A stretch of DNA of 64,000 bases from Alphaproteobacteria bacterium (GCA_965261735.1 OZ253470.1:384001-448000); one strand, 5' to 3'. Numbered from the stretch's first letter, positions 31,820 to 56,940 are shown. Program-made: numbers and translations. Notes: generated by a model not told the origin, from the letters alone.

Positions 31820-32740
31820 TCATCCCTTGAAACAATGCTCGTTGTGCCAAGTCAGGGCGGCGGTATCCGGGCGCTGGCCGATATCCGAAGGCGCATCGAT
31901 TTTGCGACCGTGAAGCGCGTAGTAGTGCTTGCCGTTGTCAAACTCCTCCCGGATCCGTCGGCTTACATCGAAGCGCAGATCGGGAGTCACCGTCACATAG
32001 CCGGCGTCGAACAGGCTGTGAATGTCCCGCCGCAGCAAAAGACCGTTCTGCGCCTCGTGTGCACCGCCATCGCCGTAGGGGCGTATATGCGCCGCCTCCA
32101 AAGCCGGCAGTGTCCGCTCTTGAGTGACCGCGCATCGCCGCCAATAGATATCCGTGACCAGCACGCGGAACGCGCCTTGCCCGAGGCGAGGACGAATGAG
32201 ATGCGGCTCGCCAAATCGCGCCTGCTCCCCTGCCATGCCCGCCATCTGTGGCCGGCTGAGTCGATCGTTCACGGCTTCCCACAAAGCCAGTCCTTCGGCA
32301 CTGTCTGTGTTGTAGGTCTTGAAAGCTACAATTCTCTGCGAGAAACTCGCCGGCGGGGGAATCCAGTCGCGTTCCGCGAAGAAGAAGGGCTGGGTCAAAA
32401 TGCGGCACCCAATCTCGAAGTCGCTGCTATCGCCTGGATCCGCGTGGCGGAGACGGGCGATGCCAGCACGCATTTCCCGCCCTGAGTGGGCACCGTTCGC
32501 TTCCTTGAATGCCTCCCAGGCGAGCGAGCACGGCAGCGCGTTCGCGTAGGCAAAGATACCGCCACCGACAATCAAGTTGCGCGGCGCGCGCAGCTTGAAC
32601 AGAAACATTTCGCCCGGCTCGAGTGCACGGAATTTCGTGGCCGACGGCGCCCAGAAGTTCACCTCGTCGAGGTTCGGCTGCTGACGCAGCATCTCGAACC
32701 AGTCTCCGTCCGTGACCGCAATGACGAGGTTGATGCCCAT
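31820..32740 (-). CDS. HNH endonuclease (putative restriction enzyme)
   Basis: 'CAVT...LEAAHI..Y...NGLLLRRDIHSLFD'; N-terminal 'TDGDWF..EVNFW' domain. Confidence 0.85.
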   Translation of the reverse strand: MGINLVIAVTDGDWFEMLRQQPNLDEVNFWAPSATKFRALEPGEMFLFKLRAPRNLIVGGGIFAYANALPCSLAWEAFKEANGAHSGREMRAGIARLRHADPGDSSDFEIGCRILTQPFFFAERDWIPPPASFSQRIVAFKTYNTDSAEGLALWEAVNDRLSRPQMAGMAGEQARFGEPHLIRPRLGQGAFRVLVTDIYWRRCAVTQERTLPALEAAHIRPYGDGGAHEAQNGLLLRRDIHSLFDAGYVTVTPDLRFDVSRRIREEFDNGKHYYALHGRKIDAPSDIGQRPDTAALTWHNEHCFKG

Positions 32741-32858
32741 TCTATTCCGCCGCCTTCATCTCTCGGGCTTGTGCCGGTGCGGGAACCCTCGTCGACGAAC
32801 GAACCCGAGCGGTCTGTCCGTCGTCAGATGATTTGCGACAGGGTTGTGCCGACATTGT

Positions 32859-34212
32859 CATGTATGGACGCCCCCGGTGTTGCAAGGGGAAAACTGATTT
32901 GAATCGGCGGTAGAGCTTGCAGTCATGTATCCGGCCTTTTCGCTGCGGTACGCTGACCGCTGGCCCTGATGGAATCCGAAAGATCGACGCCCAGTCAGAC
33001 TAACGAGCTTGATGCTCGGACAATGCCTCGGGTTTGGCCGATCTCGGGTGGAACCCTGTTTCGCCATCAAATCGTCGTCACCCTCGCAATTTGATCCCGG
33101 TTTGCCAGCTGGCTATGCCGGCGTCGGTCGGTAGATACGCTCGTACCTGAGCAGTGCCCAGGCGACACGGGCTGCCTTATTGGCCATGGCGACCAGCACC
33201 ACGTTTGTCGGCCGCCGCGCCAGGAGCCGGTCGGTCCAGCCAGGCCCCGTGCCCGGCTTGGCGCGGCGCCAGCGCAGCACGGTTCGCGCACCATGCACGA
33301 GCAAGCGCCTGATATAGCCATCCCCGCGCTTCGATATCCGTCCCAGTCTATCCTTGCCGCCACTCGAGTGCTGCCGGGGCACCAGACCGAGCCAGGCCGA
33401 AAGCTGTCGGCCCGAGCGGAACTGTGCGCCATCGCCGATCGTCGCGACCAGCGCCGTCGCGGTGATGACACCGACGCCGGGGATCGTCGCAAGACGGCGG
33501 CTCGCCTCGTTGGAGCGGTGCCATGCCAAAAGCGTCACTTCCAGCTGCTTGATCCGGGCCTGAGCAGAACGGAGCTGCTCAACCAGAGAGCCAAGCGCCT
33601 CGCGTGCCAGAGGCGGCAGTCGCACATCGCCGGGATCTTCGATAATGGCAACCAGTTCCTCCACCTTCGACGCCCCCTGAGCGACGATCAGTCCGAACTC
33701 CGCACAGTGGCCGCGCAGCGCATTGATCACCATCGTGCGTTGACGGACCAACAGCTCTCGGGCCCGGTGCAGCATCAGAACCGACTGCTGCTCGGCGCTT
33801 TTCGCCGGTGCAAAGCGCATCGTCGGACGCGTCACTGCCTCACAGATCGTTTCCGCATCCGCTGCGTCGTTCTTATTCGTTTTGACGAAGGGACGAACGT
33901 ATTGAGGCGGAATCAGCTGAACTTTGTGCCCGTGTGCTTGCAGTTCCCGAGCCCAATAGTGCGCAGAGGCACAGGCTTCCATACCGACAAGACAGGATGG
34001 CAATCCGGCGAAGAACGCCAGCACCTTCCCGCGGCGCAGCTTCCGCCGTAGTACCGGTCGTCCCTCACCATCAGCACCGTGAACCTGGAACACCGTCTTT
34101 GCCAGATCGAACCCAATTGTCGTAATATCCATCGTGGACGCTCCCTCTGTCTGGGTTGTTCAACACACTCCAGTATGGCTCATCGTGAAGCCGTAGGGGG
34201 CGTCCATACCAT
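32859..34212 (-). mobile_element. IS1111-subgroup (IS110 family) element 1; recombinase 33113-34132
   Basis: DEDD motifs (GFDLAK, MEAC, KNDAADA); 'SSGGK' catalytic Ser; subterminal IRs gtatggacgccccc; TG core at both junctions. Confidence 0.93.
32880..33112 (-). ncRNA. Putative bridge/seek RNA of IS1111 element 1 (boundaries approximate)
   Basis: Segments at 33019-33027 and 32994-33003 match the flanks; 32967-32972 and 32923-32930 match the circle junction. Confidence 0.75.
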
Positions 34213-34283
34213 CAGACCAACTGGGTCGGACCTGCAAGACCTACAACCAAGCGGCCTCAGGCTCCCGCCAACTCATGAACCAC

Positions 34284-34311
34284 ATTGGCCCGGCGCCGGC
34301 GCCGGGCCAAT
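34284..34311. repeat. Perfect 28-bp palindrome
   Basis: attggcccggcgcc|ggcgccgggccaat. Confidence 0.9.
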
Positions 34312-34341
34312 CATGTTTCGGCTGCCGCCGTGGACCAGTAG

Positions 34342-34894
34342 AATTCCCTGTTCTCCCGAACAAAATCCCTGTTCGCTCGAATGAATTCCCTGTTACATAG
34401 TTTAGGGAATTGGACCGAAAACACTAGCGTTTCTGCCATGTTTCAAACACAGGAAAGCTTCTGAATCCCTGCAAAAGAGAAAATTTTCCTGTAATTTCCC
34501 TGTTAAACAGGGAATTGGCCTCAGAGACGAGTTCGCGGGAGACTGCCTGCACAGCCAGCCACCCCGGCGAAGCAGTCTCTTCATCGCATAGCTCGGCCAA
34601 GCCGCGGGAAACAGGGCCCGTTTCGCGGTCAAACGGAATTCTGAGCTCCTGAACCCGGGAGCATTTCCGGCCATTGCCGGGGTTCCCGGCGTGCGGTCTC
34701 CGCGAGCGCGATGCAAGGGTGAGTTTGGTGGCAACAGGGAATTTTTGCGATTACGGCCTCAAAACAGGGAGATTGTAGCGAACTGCCGACCAAAATGAAG
34801 AAATTATCTTTTTTTATCAATGACTTCTGAACTTTCCTGTTTTTCTGCAGAAGGGCAGTCGATATCAGGGAAGCAAATGAAGGGAACAGGAAAT
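34342..34894. repeat. Array of WWTCCCTGTT / AACAGGGAWW boxes downstream of the serine recombinase
   Basis: CCCTG at 34346, 34367, 34388, 34467, 34498; inverted boxes near 34403, 34449, 34506, 34610, 34733, 34763, 34864, 34885. Confidence 0.85.
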
Positions 34895-34945: not shown

Positions 34946-36535
34946 CTATTCCGGCGATGTTGCAATTCCGATTTGGACGGCTTGTTGCGACCAGGCGAGC
35001 GGTATTGGGCCCTTGAGGAGCTGTGTCAGTGTTACCCCTGCGGATTGGCGACCTTCAACAATCGCTCTTTGGATCTCCGGTGCCAGAAAGGCCAGGCGAA
35101 CGAGCTGGCGGCGATAGGGCGTATCCGGTGCTGTGACGAGCACGGGCAATCCGCCATCATCGTGGTGCAGCATGGCGTGTGCGGAGCGGAGCGCCTTGAC
35201 CAGAACAGGGTCCGGCATGTGTCCCGCACTTGGGCCCTTGAGAACCCAGGTCTCGCCACGACGCCGGACAAGGGGCAGATGCAGTCTGGCGAGACGCGCA
35301 TCCACAGGATCCGGCTCGAGGCGTTCGTGCGGCTCGAGGCGCTGGCGCATCGCGACGATCCGGTCGATCGGCAGCAAGCAGTGCAGCGACTGATCGTGGA
35401 GCTCGGCGCGGACAACAAGCGTGATGGGATCGTCCGGACATCCCGCGATCACGCGACGCAGCACGGTCGCGAGGGCGACTTCGAGCGGTGGGGCGGATAT
35501 GCGCCGGATGGCTGTGTCGGATGGATCGCGCCTTGCCCCTTGCTGCAGCGGTGCCGAGACATAGTAGCGATAGAGCCTGCCACCCCGCCCATAAGAGAAG
35601 GTCGGCGACATCGGCCGACCATCCGCGTCGAAGAGGCGCCCGGCCAGAGGGGCATTCGCCTTTTGCTCGCGATTCGATGCCCGGCGGCGGGTGTTCGCGT
35701 CGAGCCGCGCCTGGACGGCCGCGAAGAGATCGCCATCGATGATGGCCTGGTGCCGGCCGGGATGCGCCCTCCCCTTGTGGACGATCATGCCGCGATAGAC
35801 TCTGTTGCGCAGCAGTTGAAAGAGCGCGCCACGACTGAACGGCCGGCCGCCGGATAGTCGACCCGCCCGCGTCACGCGCCGCTTCGAACGGATGCCCCGG
35901 TCCTCAAGCCATCGCTGCAGCGCGTGCACGGAGCCGAGATCGATATAGGCCCCGAAGATGGTGCGCACGATCTCGGCCTCCTCCTGGTTGACCGCCAGGG
36001 CGCGCGTGCCATCCCCAGGCGGGTCGTAGCCAAGCGGCACAGTGCCGCCCATCCACATGCCCTTGGCCTTGGAGGCCGCGATCTTGTCGCGTATGCGCTC
36101 GCCCGTCACCTCGCGCTCGAACTGCGCGAAGGACAAGAGCACGTTCAGTGTCAGGCGGCCCATGCTGGTCGTGGTGTTGAAGGCCTGGGTGACGCTGACG
36201 AAGCTGGCCCGGCGGCGATCGAAGATCTCGATCATGCGTGCGAAGTCGGGCAAGGACCGGGTCAGGCGGTCAATCTTGTAGACGACGATGACGTCGACCT
36301 TGCCGGCTTCGATGTCGCAGAGAAGCCGCTTGAGCGCCGGGCGCTCCATGGACGCGCCGGAGAAGCCGCCATCGTCGTAGCGGGCCCGGACTGCTCTCCA
36401 ACCTTCGCCGGCCTGGCTCTTCACATACGCCGCGCAGGCTTCGCGCTGCGCATCGAGGGAGTTGAACGCCTGCTCAAGGCCTTCCTCGCTGCTCTTCCTC
36501 GTATAGAGGGCGCAGTGGAGACGGGGCCGGCTCAT
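34946..36535 (-). CDS. Large serine recombinase (resolvase + recombinase domains)
   Basis: 'CALYTRKS...NSLDAQREAC', 'VYKIDRLTRS', 'SFAQFERE', 'WMGG..PLGY'; ATG overlaps the upstream stop. Confidence 0.93.
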   Translation of the reverse strand: MSRPRLHCALYTRKSSEEGLEQAFNSLDAQREACAAYVKSQAGEGWRAVRARYDDGGFSGASMERPALKRLLCDIEAGKVDVIVVYKIDRLTRSLPDFARMIEIFDRRRASFVSVTQAFNTTTSMGRLTLNVLLSFAQFEREVTGERIRDKIAASKAKGMWMGGTVPLGYDPPGDGTRALAVNQEEAEIVRTIFGAYIDLGSVHALQRWLEDRGIRSKRRVTRAGRLSGGRPFSRGALFQLLRNRVYRGMIVHKGRAHPGRHQAIIDGDLFAAVQARLDANTRRRASNREQKANAPLAGRLFDADGRPMSPTFSYGRGGRLYRYYVSAPLQQGARRDPSDTAIRRISAPPLEVALATVLRRVIAGCPDDPITLVVRAELHDQSLHCLLPIDRIVAMRQRLEPHERLEPDPVDARLARLHLPLVRRRGETWVLKGPSAGHMPDPVLVKALRSAHAMLHHDDGGLPVLVTAPDTPYRRQLVRLAFLAPEIQRAIVEGRQSAGVTLTQLLKGPIPLAWSQQAVQIGIATSPE

Positions 36536-36945
36536 TTGGCGGATCGGAGGCCGAAGAAGCGCGGGCCATTCCAACGCGTGCCCGCGATCGCGGTCGCGGC
36601 CGCGGAGAGGCTCTTGAAGAGTTGACCCCCGTGGCGAAACCCCTCTTCTTCGACCGTGACCTGGACGATCCGCCCCCGCCATTCACGCCGCAGCGTGGTC
36701 CCGATCCCGAGCTCAAGACCTTCTGCCTGGACCCGCTGGCGGCGCTTGAGCTGGCGCCGTGTGTCACGATCGAGACCGCCGAGAGCCTCTGCCTGCAACC
36801 GCCAGGCCAGACAATAACGCAACAGCGCGGCCGAGCGCAGCTTCGGCGGGACACCGTAGCGGTTGCGCCAAACCTCTCGAAGCCCTTCGAGACCAAGGGG
36901 CGTGAGCGCCTCGATCTCGTCCGCAAGCGGCGCCTCGCCGGTCAT
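36532..36945 (-). CDS. DUF2924-like protein
   Basis: 'LAWRLQAEALGGL', 'GTTLRREWRG', 'SLSAAATAIAGTRWNGPRFFGL'. Confidence 0.85.
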   Translation of the reverse strand: MTGEAPLADEIEALTPLGLEGLREVWRNRYGVPPKLRSAALLRYCLAWRLQAEALGGLDRDTRRQLKRRQRVQAEGLELGIGTTLRREWRGRIVQVTVEEEGFRHGGQLFKSLSAAATAIAGTRWNGPRFFGLRSAK

Positions 36946-49802: not shown

Positions 49803-50964
49803 ATTGGGAGTGGCATATTGTCGGGCGCCGGCTGACTGCCAGGATGAGGGTGCAGGCGAAACGGCTGCAGCGCAACGATGTCCTGAGCATAAGGTACAAG
49901 GTGGAATCCTCCGGGAAGCAGCAGCGCGATCTTCTGATCAACGGCGCAGGTGCTGACGGAATGAAGCCGGTGTACTGCATATATTGTACTTAAGCGCAGC
50001 GGCGGGTGTGGAAGCAAGGAGTGGCGACAGCTCTGTTTGGAACGCTTCAGGCCGGCTGCCTGCTGGCCGATGCCCGGGATGTGCCGTTGACCACGAAGAG
50101 GCTGCACGAGATCGAGGAGCAGTGCTTTCCCTGGCACTTTCTCTTCAGTCGATCCGTGTTCGTGCCGCAGAAGACGATACTTGTCGCCGAGGAAGAGGCG
50201 GAGTTGGTCAGCCTGGTGGAAGAACTTGATGAGACAGAGCCGAGTCTGAGGCCGACGGCGGGCCAGGGCGATGGCGCGATGGCGGGTGGAATGCGCCCAC
50301 GATCGACGACCTCAGCCGGGATACGGGACGAGAATTCGACCGGGCCGGGGTCCGCGAGACCACGGATGAAGACCGGGCGAGAGTTGAGCCTCTGACGGCG
50401 GCAGGACGTCTGATGGCGCAGGACGACCGGGGGCGGCTGGTCGACCGGGGGATTCACCGCAAGGCAAATGCTCGGCCTACAAAAATCACTTGTATCTGGT
50501 GGTAATCCGACTTCATCAACTCGTCGGTATCATTCGGATAACTTTTCTTACTTGTAAACCTCTACCCCTTAAATCGCTTTTGATTTCTACTTCCATCTCG
50601 TCACCTTCCAGAATGCTGGTTCTCACATCGCCATCCAACACAGAAAAATGAAAAACGCATCAGTACTATCCGACGTCGCTTCTGGCGATCCGAGCTGATG
50701 CCAGCGCGCCGTTGTCAGACTAACCGGGTCGGCCTATAGAACCTACGATCAAGGGCTCTCAGGCTGCGAGTTGACGCCAGATCACCGACATCCTGAAAGA
50801 TGGGAACGCCGCCGACCGCGTCGCCGAGGAAAGCTGCGCTGCGTTTGTGAGGAGACGGTAGTTCGGGACCGCGCCAGCGATCCTGCCATCACAGTTCATG
50901 TCGACCACGACGGAGGCGTCTTCGACCGCGAACGCGGCATCCACCGGAACTTAGTTCGGTAAAA

Positions 50965-55366: not shown

Positions 55367-55412
55367 TGGTTGCGGGGTTGGATTTGAACCAACGACCTTC
55401 AGGCTATGAGCC
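55367..55412 (-). pseudogene. tRNA-fMet 3' half (att-site remnant)
   Basis: Reverse complement ggctcatagcctgaaggtcgttggttcaaatccaaccccgcaacca: CAT anticodon, T arm, CCA; no D arm. Confidence 0.85.
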
Positions 55413-55467
55413 GGATTGTCATGTCAACGGCGGCGGGAATATGTACCGGCGCGGCGGCGCAAAAATG

Positions 55468-56845
55468 ATGGAGTGGACGCCTCCTCCCGACGGCATCTGC
55501 ATGTGCCAAGGTGGTGTTGTAGTTCGACCCCCTGAAGGAGGAGGCATCCGTGGAACAGGTTACCATCGTCGGGATTGATTTGGCGAAGCGCAGCTTTCAG
55601 CTTCATGGTGCTGGGGCGGACGGCTCTGTCGCGTTCCGCAGGAAGCTGAGCCGGGAGAGATTGCTTGAGTTTCTCGCTTCTCAGCCGCGCTGCGTGGTCG
55701 CGATGGAGGCTTGCGCGGGCGCTCATCAATGGGGCCGCGAGATCGGACAGCTCGGCCACGATGTGAGGTTGCTCCCGCCGATCTACGTCAAGCCGTTCGT
55801 GAAGCGGCATAAGAACGACATGGCGGACGCAGAGGCGATCTGCGAGGCGGCGCAGCGCCCGACGATGCGCTTCGTGGCGGTGAAGACGGAAGAACAGCAG
55901 GCCAGGGGAATGTTGTTCCACACGCGCGACCTTCTGGTGCGCCAGCGCACGCAGACGATCAACGCGTTGCGGGGCCACCTGGCGGAGTTCGGCGTCGTCG
56001 CGCCGCAGGGACCGGCTCATGTCGATCGGCTGGCATCGGCCCTCCAGGATCCAGGTTCAGGGCTGCCGGGATCGGTCCGTGAGCTGGGCGCCCTTCTGTT
56101 CGATCGGATCGAGGACCTCGATGCGAAGATCGCTGGATTGAGGAGGGAGCTCCGCGCCCGCGCGTGTCAGGACGAAGAGGCGGCACGGGTCATGACGATC
56201 CCCGGCATTGGGCCGATCACCGCAACGGCAGTCCAGGCCTTCGCACCGCCGATGGAGAGCTTCCGGCGCGGCCGCGACTTCGCGGCCTGGCTCGGGCTCG
56301 TGCCGCGACAGTACACGACCGGCGGCAAGCCAAGGCTTGGCAGGATATCGAAGATGGGCCAACGCGATCTGAGGCGGCTGTTGATCACGGGCGCCATGGC
56401 TGTGGTCAGCTGGGCGGCTCGTCGTGGCGAAACGAACGCCCCCTGGCTGGCCAGGATGCTCGCCCGCAAGCCGAGAATGCTGGTCGCGGTGGCGCTGGCC
56501 AACCGGATGGCACGCATCGTCTGGGCGGTGACGACGAAGAAGGAGAGCTACCGGGCTCCCGCCGCCGCCTGAGAGGGCGGCGAAAGGCGGAGAGCCGTCG
56601 GGGATGTGGGCAGGTCGGAGGACAGGTAAGGGCAAACGGTCGATCGAGACGGGATCGGGAAAACCAGTCGTGGTACACGGAGCTTTCAAGCCCGCAAAAA
56701 TGATCTTGGACCCGGCCCGCGCATCTCCATACAGGCCCGCGGCGTCAAACCAGCCGCATCATGAGGCCGGACAGATGACTAAACCTGACCGCATGTGCCG
56801 AACCGTCCGAAGAAAGGCTTGCATCAACGGAGGCGTCCACAGATG
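55468..56845 (+). mobile_element. IS1111-subgroup (IS110 family) element 2; recombinase 55550-56572
   Basis: GIDLAK, MEAC, KNDMADA; subterminal IRs gtggacgcctcc / ggaggcgtccac; TG core. Confidence 0.95.
56573..56825 (+). ncRNA. Putative bridge/seek RNA of IS1111 element 2 (boundaries approximate)
   Basis: cgtggtaca (56669-77) and cgcaaaaatg (56693-702) match the flanks; ctccat (56725-30) and acagatga (56771-78) match the circle junction. Confidence 0.82.
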
Positions 56846-56940
56846 TACCACGGGCTCGGTGGTAGCTTGTCCGCGTAGTCCATGGGAGGGACCCGCGCGC
56901 GGGGCGACGCGCCCTCCGCGCGATCGAAGGCAGGCTGCGA

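Follow-up and report, generated by a model that had tools for sequence, protein, structure and literature searches.

The 64,000-nucleotide (nt) stretch of Alphaproteobacteria bacterium DNA analysed here (GCA_965261735.1, OZ253470.1:384001-448000; called the window, with positions counted from its first letter) carries on its minus strand, at 32861-34212, an intact insertion sequence of 1352 bp that belongs to the IS110 family, IS1111 group. With a probability of about 90%, the 252-nt non-coding region 3' of its transposase gene encodes a structured bridge RNA (seekRNA) that directs the DEDD transposase to the target of the element. This reading is carried by the anatomy of the element, by an RNA fold conserved among homologues, and by guide words that covary with the flanking DNA, as does a further word with the right end. 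A first-pass annotation, made from the sequence of the window, had interpreted the element as an IS1111 member with its own guide RNA, and this interpretation was supported.

An intact IS1111 element inserted at a TG core

The transposase open reading frame is intact and encodes 339 amino acids. It matches PF01548 (N-terminal, DEDD/RuvC-like, E 4e-14) and PF02371 (C-terminal, E 3e-28), and scores 349 bits against NCBIfam NF033542, "IS110 family RNA-guided transposase", for a cut-off of 140. IS1111 elements are defined in published work by subterminal inverted repeats of 7-17 bp that are set in from the ends (Durrant 2024, PMC11208160; Siddiquee 2024, PMC11187229), and their transposases, of 330-350 amino acids, share the motif GL-P----S(T)G (Siddiquee 2024, PMC11187229). 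In the window element, 12-nt subterminal inverted repeats (ATGGACGCCCCC / GGGGGCGTCCAT) are inset by 5 nt at the left end and by 3 nt at the right end, the non-coding DNA amounts to 252 nt after the stop codon versus 80 nt before the start codon, the transposase contains GLVPRQHSSG, and across its residues 2-334 it shares 41.8% identity with a transposase annotated as IS4321-family. The subterminal repeats, the long 3' non-coding region, the motif and this identity therefore place the element in the IS1111 group, all five of whose tested features were found.

Read on the minus strand, the element starts TG|atggt-ATGGACGCCCCC and finishes GGGGGCGTCCAT-aca|TG. Its left junction is ttggtc-TG-atggtATGGACGCCCCC and its right junction GGGGGCGTCCATaca-TG-acaatgtc, so that the restored target is ttggtcTGacaatgtc. 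The first-pass annotation had given the span as 32851-34222; the element is indeed there, but these limits include 10 flanking bases on each side. Inspection of the copies in the same genome revealed TG at both ends, at all 12 left and 10 right junctions. Insertion is site- and orientation-specific, with no duplication beyond the TG core, and the flanks share a consensus. The boundaries were confirmed by an unoccupied near-target, TTAGTCTGACAACGGC, at 50701-50716 of the window (minus strand; genome position 434708), since it has a single TG in the same repeat context: it differs from the predicted target by two mismatches and shares about 38 nt of repeat with the occupied sites. Besides being intact, the element has probably been active in recent times.

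Two guide words match the two halves of the target

On the minus strand, the 3' region holds in succession GGCATTGTC, a short hairpin, TTAGTCTGAC, CCATCA and ATACATGA. All these words, their order and their match counts were found as the first-pass annotation had described them. The word GGCATTGTC matches the reverse complement of G+acaatgtc, the element's own right flank, at 8/9 positions, and the mismatch places an RNA G opposite a DNA T. The word TTAGTCTGAC matches the element's own ttggtcTGac at 9/10 positions, the mismatch being an RNA A opposite a bottom-strand C. CCATCA and ATACATGA both match the sequence atacaTGatgg formed by joining the two ends, a claim of the first-pass annotation that the minus-strand sequence bears out. 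The two target guides lie in a loop between conserved helices, are complementary to opposite strands of the target and overlap at the core, all of which are features of seekRNAs.

To estimate how often such a pair arises by chance, both strands of the 5.03-Mb genome were scanned for the first word at 8/9 or better, followed within 15-40 nt by the second at 9/10 or better. Only 11 occurrences were found. Ten fall, by coordinate, in copies of the element, so that a chance origin of the pair is excluded; the remaining one lies in an unrelated coding-like stretch. The pair is expected at random about once per 10 million positions, or with a chance of about 1 in 40,000 for one 252-nt region.

In the proposed mechanism, an arm of the RNA, with an internal loop closed by helices P1 and P2 and capped by hairpin P3 (Table 1), would present the two target guides. 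On the right-hand side of the TG core, GGCAUUGUC would bind the top strand; on the left-hand side, and over the core itself, UUAGUCUGAC would bind the bottom strand. Both together would direct the DEDD transposase to TTAGTC-TG-ACAATGCC (predicted insertion site TTAGTCTGACAATGCC). A second module flanks a GGCC/GGCC hairpin. Its word AUACAUGA would read the right end and the core, CCAUCA is complementary to the core and the left end, and the module would thereby read the joined ends of an excised circle. Transcription of the RNA, its binding by the transposase, strand exchange at TG and a junction promoter would complete the scheme, as expected from relatives of the element.

Table 1. Features of the window element, in window positions
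Feature	Position	Strand	Basis or remark
Left half of target (ttggtc)	34215..34220	minus	5/6 versus guide-predicted TTAGTC
TG core, left junction	34213..34214	minus	junction sequence and genome copies
Left end: 5-nt extension atggt, then 12-nt subterminal inverted repeat ATGGACGCCCCC	34196..34212	minus
Transposase gene, 339 amino acids	33113..34132	minus	open reading frame, Pfam, NCBIfam
P0, outer long-range helix, 5' strand GACGAUUUGAUGGCG	33062..33076	minus	contains UGAUGG, alternative partner of CCAUCA (helix H0)
Target-binding arm	32982..33043	minus	internal loop enclosed by P1 and P2, capped by P3
P1	33037-33043 with 32982-32988	minus	RNAalifold; compensatory changes in 5/7 pairs
P2	33030-33032 with 32990-32992	minus	RNAalifold; compensatory changes in 2/3 pairs
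Guide T, GGCAUUGUC (DNA GGCATTGTC)	33019..33027	minus	complementary to top strand, right half-site (core G + acaatgcc)
Hairpin P3, CGAGC-AUCAA-GCUCG, between the two target guides	33004..33018	minus	RNAalifold; compensatory changes in 3/5 pairs
Guide B, UUAGUCUGAC (DNA TTAGTCTGAC)	32994..33003	minus	same sense as left half-site + TG + AC; complementary to bottom strand
CCAUCA, candidate left-end donor guide	32967..32972	minus	complementary to TG+ATGG (core + left end); can also pair with UGAUGG at 33064-33069
P5 (GGCC/GGCC, invariant) and P6 (GCGGU/ACCGC), between the two donor words	32933..32965	minus	RNAalifold
AUACAUGA (DNA ATACATGA), right-end donor guide	32923..32930	minus	same sense as last 5 nt of right end + TG + A
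P0, outer helix, 3' strand CGCCGAUUCAAAUCAGU	32893..32909	minus
TTGCAA, candidate -35 box of junction promoter	32880..32885	minus	17-nt spacer, then caTGat across the joined ends
Right end: subterminal inverted repeat GGGGGCGTCCAT, then 3-nt extension aca	32861..32875	minus
TG core and right half of target (acaatgtc)	32851..32860	minus	7/8 versus guide-predicted ACAATGCC

A conserved fold and covariation of guides with targets

Homologues were sought in one genome per species, and 80 loci were recovered, with transposases 56-99% identical. Ends were set in most loci by the subterminal-repeat rule; 64 loci, the two elements of the window included, had clean ends and full flanks. Their 3' regions were collapsed to 35 sequences sharing less than 97% identity, which served as the alignment for both the fold and the covariation analysis.

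RNAalifold predicted for these 35 sequences a 7-bp P1 and a 3-bp P2, an internal loop with the target guides placed around P3, and then a GGCC/GGCC helix with an inner hairpin. The named structure comprises 30 pairs in six helices. It is 97.4% paired, versus 87.3% in shuffled alignments, and the observed value was reached in none of 500 shuffles, a figure that is not a probability, as the 35 sequences are related. Compensatory changes were present in 14 of the 30 pairs, and sliding the registers by 1-3 columns lowered pairing to 28-40%. The case for the fold is made more strongly by the slid registers and by the variety of compensatory pair types than by the shuffles. A short stem closing the donor loop (CGG/CTG) was dropped, being broken in several homologues.

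Counted from the right end, the best matches to each element's own flanks hardly change position: the top-strand guide is at about -167 and the bottom-strand guide at about -143. The donor words are likewise nearly fixed, at about -112 (left-end word) and -70 (right-end word). For covariation, windows around the two guide positions were scored against the element's own target and against targets of other classes, the maximum score being 17. Own targets scored 14.09/17 on average, versus 8.51/17 for targets of other classes (954 pairs), and in 29 of 35 elements, which fall into 8 target classes, the own target beat every unrelated one. Homologues combining the same guide segments with unrelated flanks, which the first-pass annotation had named as evidence against its reading, were not found: among 16 close relatives with identical or nearly identical guides the left half matched at 9/10 or better in all 16, and the right half at 8/9 or better in 14.

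These results bear on whether the protein alone chooses the target, the matching words being due to chance or being relics of captured target DNA. We regard this as extremely improbable. The guide words flank a conserved hairpin and run in opposite senses, keep their positions throughout the 35 homologues, change with the flanks from one target class to another, and form a pair rarely produced by chance, as seen above. In addition, relatives have been reprogrammed experimentally by changing such words (Siddiquee 2024, PMC11187229).

Two sets of homologous ends were unusual. Five copies in one Hoeflea metagenome-assembled genome (L068-L071 and L093) have TG at the left junction and GG at the right one, so that the two core copies differ. 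In another homologue (L050:1403-2764), the right end and its flank recur in inverted form on the left side, making a 25-nt perfect inverted repeat, GGCATTGTCATGTATGGACGCCCCC; this copy may be rearranged or head-to-head.

A second element of the window has its own guides and its own target

Another such element occupies 55468-56843 of the window, on the plus strand, and its transposase is 50% identical to that of the first. The scaffold GGCC...GGCCGGA.A.ATGACT is common to the two, as the first-pass annotation had noticed. It had also claimed that the guides differ and that each set fits its own site, and this was supported by the flanks and by homologue covariation. The pair provides the natural covariation it had announced within one window, GGCATTGTC/TTAGTCTGAC going with ttggtc-TG-acaatgtc and TCGTGGTAC/CAAAAATGAT with caaaaa-TG-taccacgg.

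The target predicted for the guides TCGTGGTAC and CAAAAATGAT is GCAAAAA-TG-TACCACGG. The four copies of the second element, the one in the window (flanks 55423-55467 and 56844-56910) and those at genome positions 3421881, 4173239 and 4347338, all lie in a repeat unit of about 110 nt, with different outer flanks. An unoccupied unit at genome position 2249768 has a single TG and reads ...gcaaaaTTGtaccacggg.... Within the 110-nt unit, the word ATGTACC occurs a second time, some 25 nt upstream of where the element inserts. About 55 nt to the left of the second element, at approximately 55368-55413 on the minus strand, a sequence resembles a tRNA in its 3' portion, with a T arm, an acceptor end, CCA and a loop containing CAT. 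As ARAGORN called no tRNA gene in the window, this is probably a fragment.

The predicted target is the flank consensus of the genomic copies

Of the first element, five full-length copies with 99.5% identity or more are present in the genome, together with one 92% variant and several copies that are interrupted or truncated. Guide regions are identical in nine of the ten copies that keep the right end; the variant reads TTAATCTGAC. The 6 nt preceding TG were identical to TTAGTC at 3 of the 12 left junctions and had one difference at 5, whereas 2 junctions matched at three of the six positions and 2 at only one or two. Of the 8 nt following TG, compared with ACAATGCC, all were identical in 5/10 right flanks and all but one in 4/10; the last right flank is unrelated, at a place where the element abuts a partial copy of itself.

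From the guides, the first-pass annotation had predicted a perfect target, ttagtctgacaatgcc (TTAGTC-TG-ACAATGCC). This is the flank consensus of the other copies in the genome, and it is matched exactly (9/9 and 10/10) by a 99%-identical copy in another genome (L031). The genome search it had called for, with the uninterrupted 16-mer, gave no exact site, none with one mismatch and four with two mismatches, among them the near-target at 50701-50716. A target-bearing module of about 38 nt, aggttcttcaggtccgacccagTTAGTCTGACAATGCC, was found repeatedly in the genome, and the sequence upstream of it is of at least two kinds; at a guess, it derives from a terminal repeat or an attachment site.

Inspection of the copies and their surroundings also revealed other mobile DNA. 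Insertions of 1.5-2.2 kb, accompanied by short duplications, break up several copies of the element. At least 35 near-full-length copies, with at least 99.4% identity, were counted for an unrelated element of about 1.4 kb (for example genome 4338098-4339491). Just upstream of the left flank of the window element, three AACAGGGA motifs at 34335-34400 are accompanied by the gene of a large serine recombinase of 578 amino acids (34946-36682). The 800 nt left of the element have a paralogue at genome 4293587-4294197, with 97.5% identity, that stops 30 nt short of the insertion point.

Mismatches between guide and target

The first-pass annotation had taken the two elements of the window as showing that mismatches are tolerated. 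That single mismatches in the left half are common at independent sites holds true, but the window copy by itself is insufficient to establish tolerance. This copy may have inserted at a perfect, or more nearly perfect, site whose flanks mutated afterwards, which we consider a serious possibility, if short of an even chance. A paralogous locus at genome position 4454893 reads TTAGTC-TG followed by a truncated copy of the element, 96.6% identical, and over 569 nt of left flank the identity is 93.5%. The window copy may therefore have acquired the G of ttGgtc after insertion. An old segmental duplication that already held the element, followed by the A/G difference, would fit this locus. For the T in the right flank the paralogue gives no comparison, its copy being truncated. 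Independent support for tolerance, weighing against later mutation, was found in a related genome: six of its copies with the guide TTAATCTGAC (TTAATC) are inserted at TTAGTC, and their outer flanks are unrelated. These six (L034, L035, L037, L042, L044 and L073), out of 13 with that guide, are the reason for regarding single left-half mismatches as common at independent sites.

The donor words and the competing pairings of CCAUCA

The two donor words differ in how well they follow the ends of the element. In 33 of 35 homologues, the AUACAUGA word begins with the five bases that close the element itself, through the main variants ATACA, ATAGA, ACATA, ACACA, ATGGA and ACAGA, which is good evidence that the ATACATGA part of the predicted RNA reads the right end. 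CCAUCA is fully complementary to the left end in 17/35 homologues, and in 34/35 when G:T wobbles are allowed. A role as guide is less certain for it than for ATACATGA, because of this limited complementarity, of the few evolutionary events involved, and of a helix with compensatory changes that it can form with UGAUGG.

CCAUCA could accordingly be a strand of an RNA helix, UGAUGG/CCAUCA, the left end being recognized by the protein through the subterminal repeat, so that only ATACATGA would read donor DNA. RNAalifold, run on a wider alignment, does pair UGAUGG with CCAUCA. The helix is 98.6% paired in the 35 sequences, with compensatory changes in 2/6 pairs and the pair types UGAUGG/CCAUCA, UAAUGC/GCAUUA and UGAUGA/UCAUCA; in the variant clades, all pairs of this RNA helix are kept, whereas only 5/6 positions remain complementary to the left end of the DNA. 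The words ttgatga and tcatcaa were seen by eye at corresponding places of IS4321. Siddiquee 2024 (PMC11187229) found a short RNA to be sufficient and proposed a different recognition of the ends for IS1111. Against this, the 5' segment that holds UGAUGG has in the 3' tail a partner with which its helix is longer and more stable, with a mean of -14.5 kcal/mol for own pairing, compared to -7 to -8 kcal/mol for the CCAUCA pairing and -9.5 kcal/mol for cross-pairing with unrelated tails, and the own 3' tail is its best partner in 20/35 sequences. Under this outer helix CCAUCA is single-stranded in a multiloop, as Durrant 2024 (PMC11208160) gives for many IS1111 elements. Moreover, CCAUCA is placed relative to the GGCC hairpin exactly as guide T is relative to hairpin P3, and its complementarity to the left end, wobbles included, is nearly general. 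On balance, a purely structural role for CCAUCA is possible, although on the unlikely side. The UGAUGG/CCAUCA pairing had also been a candidate for the closing helix of the RNA and was demoted when the longer outer helix was found.

The UGAUGG word is itself an upstream RNA copy of the left end (core + ATGG), and both alternative pairings, UGAUGG/CCAUCA and the outer helix, show compensatory changes. Conceivably, the long RNA is a true two-module bridge RNA in which CCAUCA toggles, being either paired to UGAUGG or free in the multiloop under the outer helix; we hold this to be quite improbable. No description of such a toggle was found in the text sections consulted of Durrant 2024 and Siddiquee 2024. 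If it were true, the switch could gate donor capture, or separate a short target-only RNA from the long RNA.

Positions next to the core were also inspected. In the bottom-strand target guide, the base following the core is A in 34/35 homologues, which is the first base of the left end, and the next base is usually C or T whatever the flank. One clade has a right-end word with a final G, and its right flank starts with this base. These positions may be handshake-like, in that they resemble the handshake guides described for IS621.

Expression and points weighing against a guide RNA

A candidate promoter would be completed only when the two ends are joined, by TTGCAA, a 17-nt spacer and caTGat. 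The TTG of TTGCAA is kept in 35 of 35 aligned homologues, and the principle of a junction promoter has been described for the family (Siddiquee 2024, PMC11187229). When 32700-34400 was scanned for promoters and terminators, the only promoter-like site lay within the gene on the opposite strand, of no use for the RNA, and there was no terminator.

Sequencing runs were searched for the stretch, mostly the element itself, which was found in 20 listed runs from 9 studies; the four examined were all stored as contigs. In the contigs of these four runs there was no joint of right end to left end, indicative of a circle, nor of left flank to right flank, indicative of excision. Contigs from RNA libraries cover 32905-33083, but they say nothing on transcription, because those of a DNA run break at the same places.

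Several points weigh against the proposal that the 3' region makes a bridge RNA. In the integrated copy, no sigma-70-like promoter for the non-coding region was found on the element's strand within 32700-34400. There was no Rfam match at gathering score in the window, and the four hits within 32500-34700 were below threshold (best E 0.27). Production of the RNA and its binding by the transposase would follow from what is published on relatives. Among these, ISEc11 moves with a short RNA comprising only the target part, and the role of the long RNA is called unknown (Siddiquee 2024, PMC11187229). CCAUCA tracks the left end via essentially one clade-level change, is fully complementary only in the 17 homologues counted without wobble, and has partners (UGAUGG) inside the same RNA. 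Finally, 4 of the 12 left flanks in the genome fit the guide poorly (1-3 of 6), for which later recombination between copies could be the explanation.

Comparison with known systems

The proposed mechanism is that of the published bridge RNAs and seekRNAs (Durrant 2024, Siddiquee 2024), to which this element adds a well-supported example. The element or the alternative pairing may already be catalogued. According to Durrant 2024 (PMC11208160), a bridge RNA is predicted in the right end of 93% of IS1111 elements, often with the donor-binding bases in a multiloop.

The closest likeness is to the IS1111 elements ISEc11, ISPa11, ISKpn4 and ISPst6 (Siddiquee 2024, PMC11187229). They too have transposases of about 340 amino acids (339 for ISEc11), subterminal repeats, and a long non-coding region downstream of the gene. 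In their seekRNAs, as here, two target matches overlap at the insertion point, the top-strand match being 5' of the bottom-strand one, and close relatives have been naturally redirected by changes in the guide words. In contrast to these elements, the target is here TTAGTC-TG-ACAATGCC, and the element is known from its sequence. A further difference is that the right-end donor word was here found to covary, whereas the same source leaves the role of the long RNA open.

IS4321 and IS5075, of the IS1111 group, target the terminal repeats of the Tn21 family. Like the window element, they have subterminal repeats and a 3' non-coding region, and they insert into a repeated sequence belonging to another element. 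Inspection by eye of one IS4321 copy revealed the same layout: a complement of the right flank, a hairpin, a match to the left flank and words matching the ends. Their target, core and ends are different.

IS621 and ISCro4, of the IS110 group (PMC11208160; 8WT6, 9T56), share the principle of a two-module guide RNA, a core dinucleotide and a DEDD recombinase, and were the only solved relatives returned by a sequence search of the Protein Data Bank. Their C-terminal domain is homologous to that of the transposase (E 4e-11, residues 211-329), and only this part aligns. Unlike the window element, IS621 has its RNA in the left end, upstream of the gene, with the guide order reversed; its subterminal repeats are of 2-3 bp, and its donor guides are in a simple internal loop, not in a multiloop (PMC11208160).

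In this genome, hardly any good copy of the short target is left without the element, which explains part of the insertion-sequence load. For the IS1111 group, the finding that the AUACAUGA word covaries with the right end is relevant to the purpose of the long seekRNA, and the 35 non-redundant RNAs, with their 8 target classes, form a natural series that could guide the design of IS1111-type programmable recombinases.

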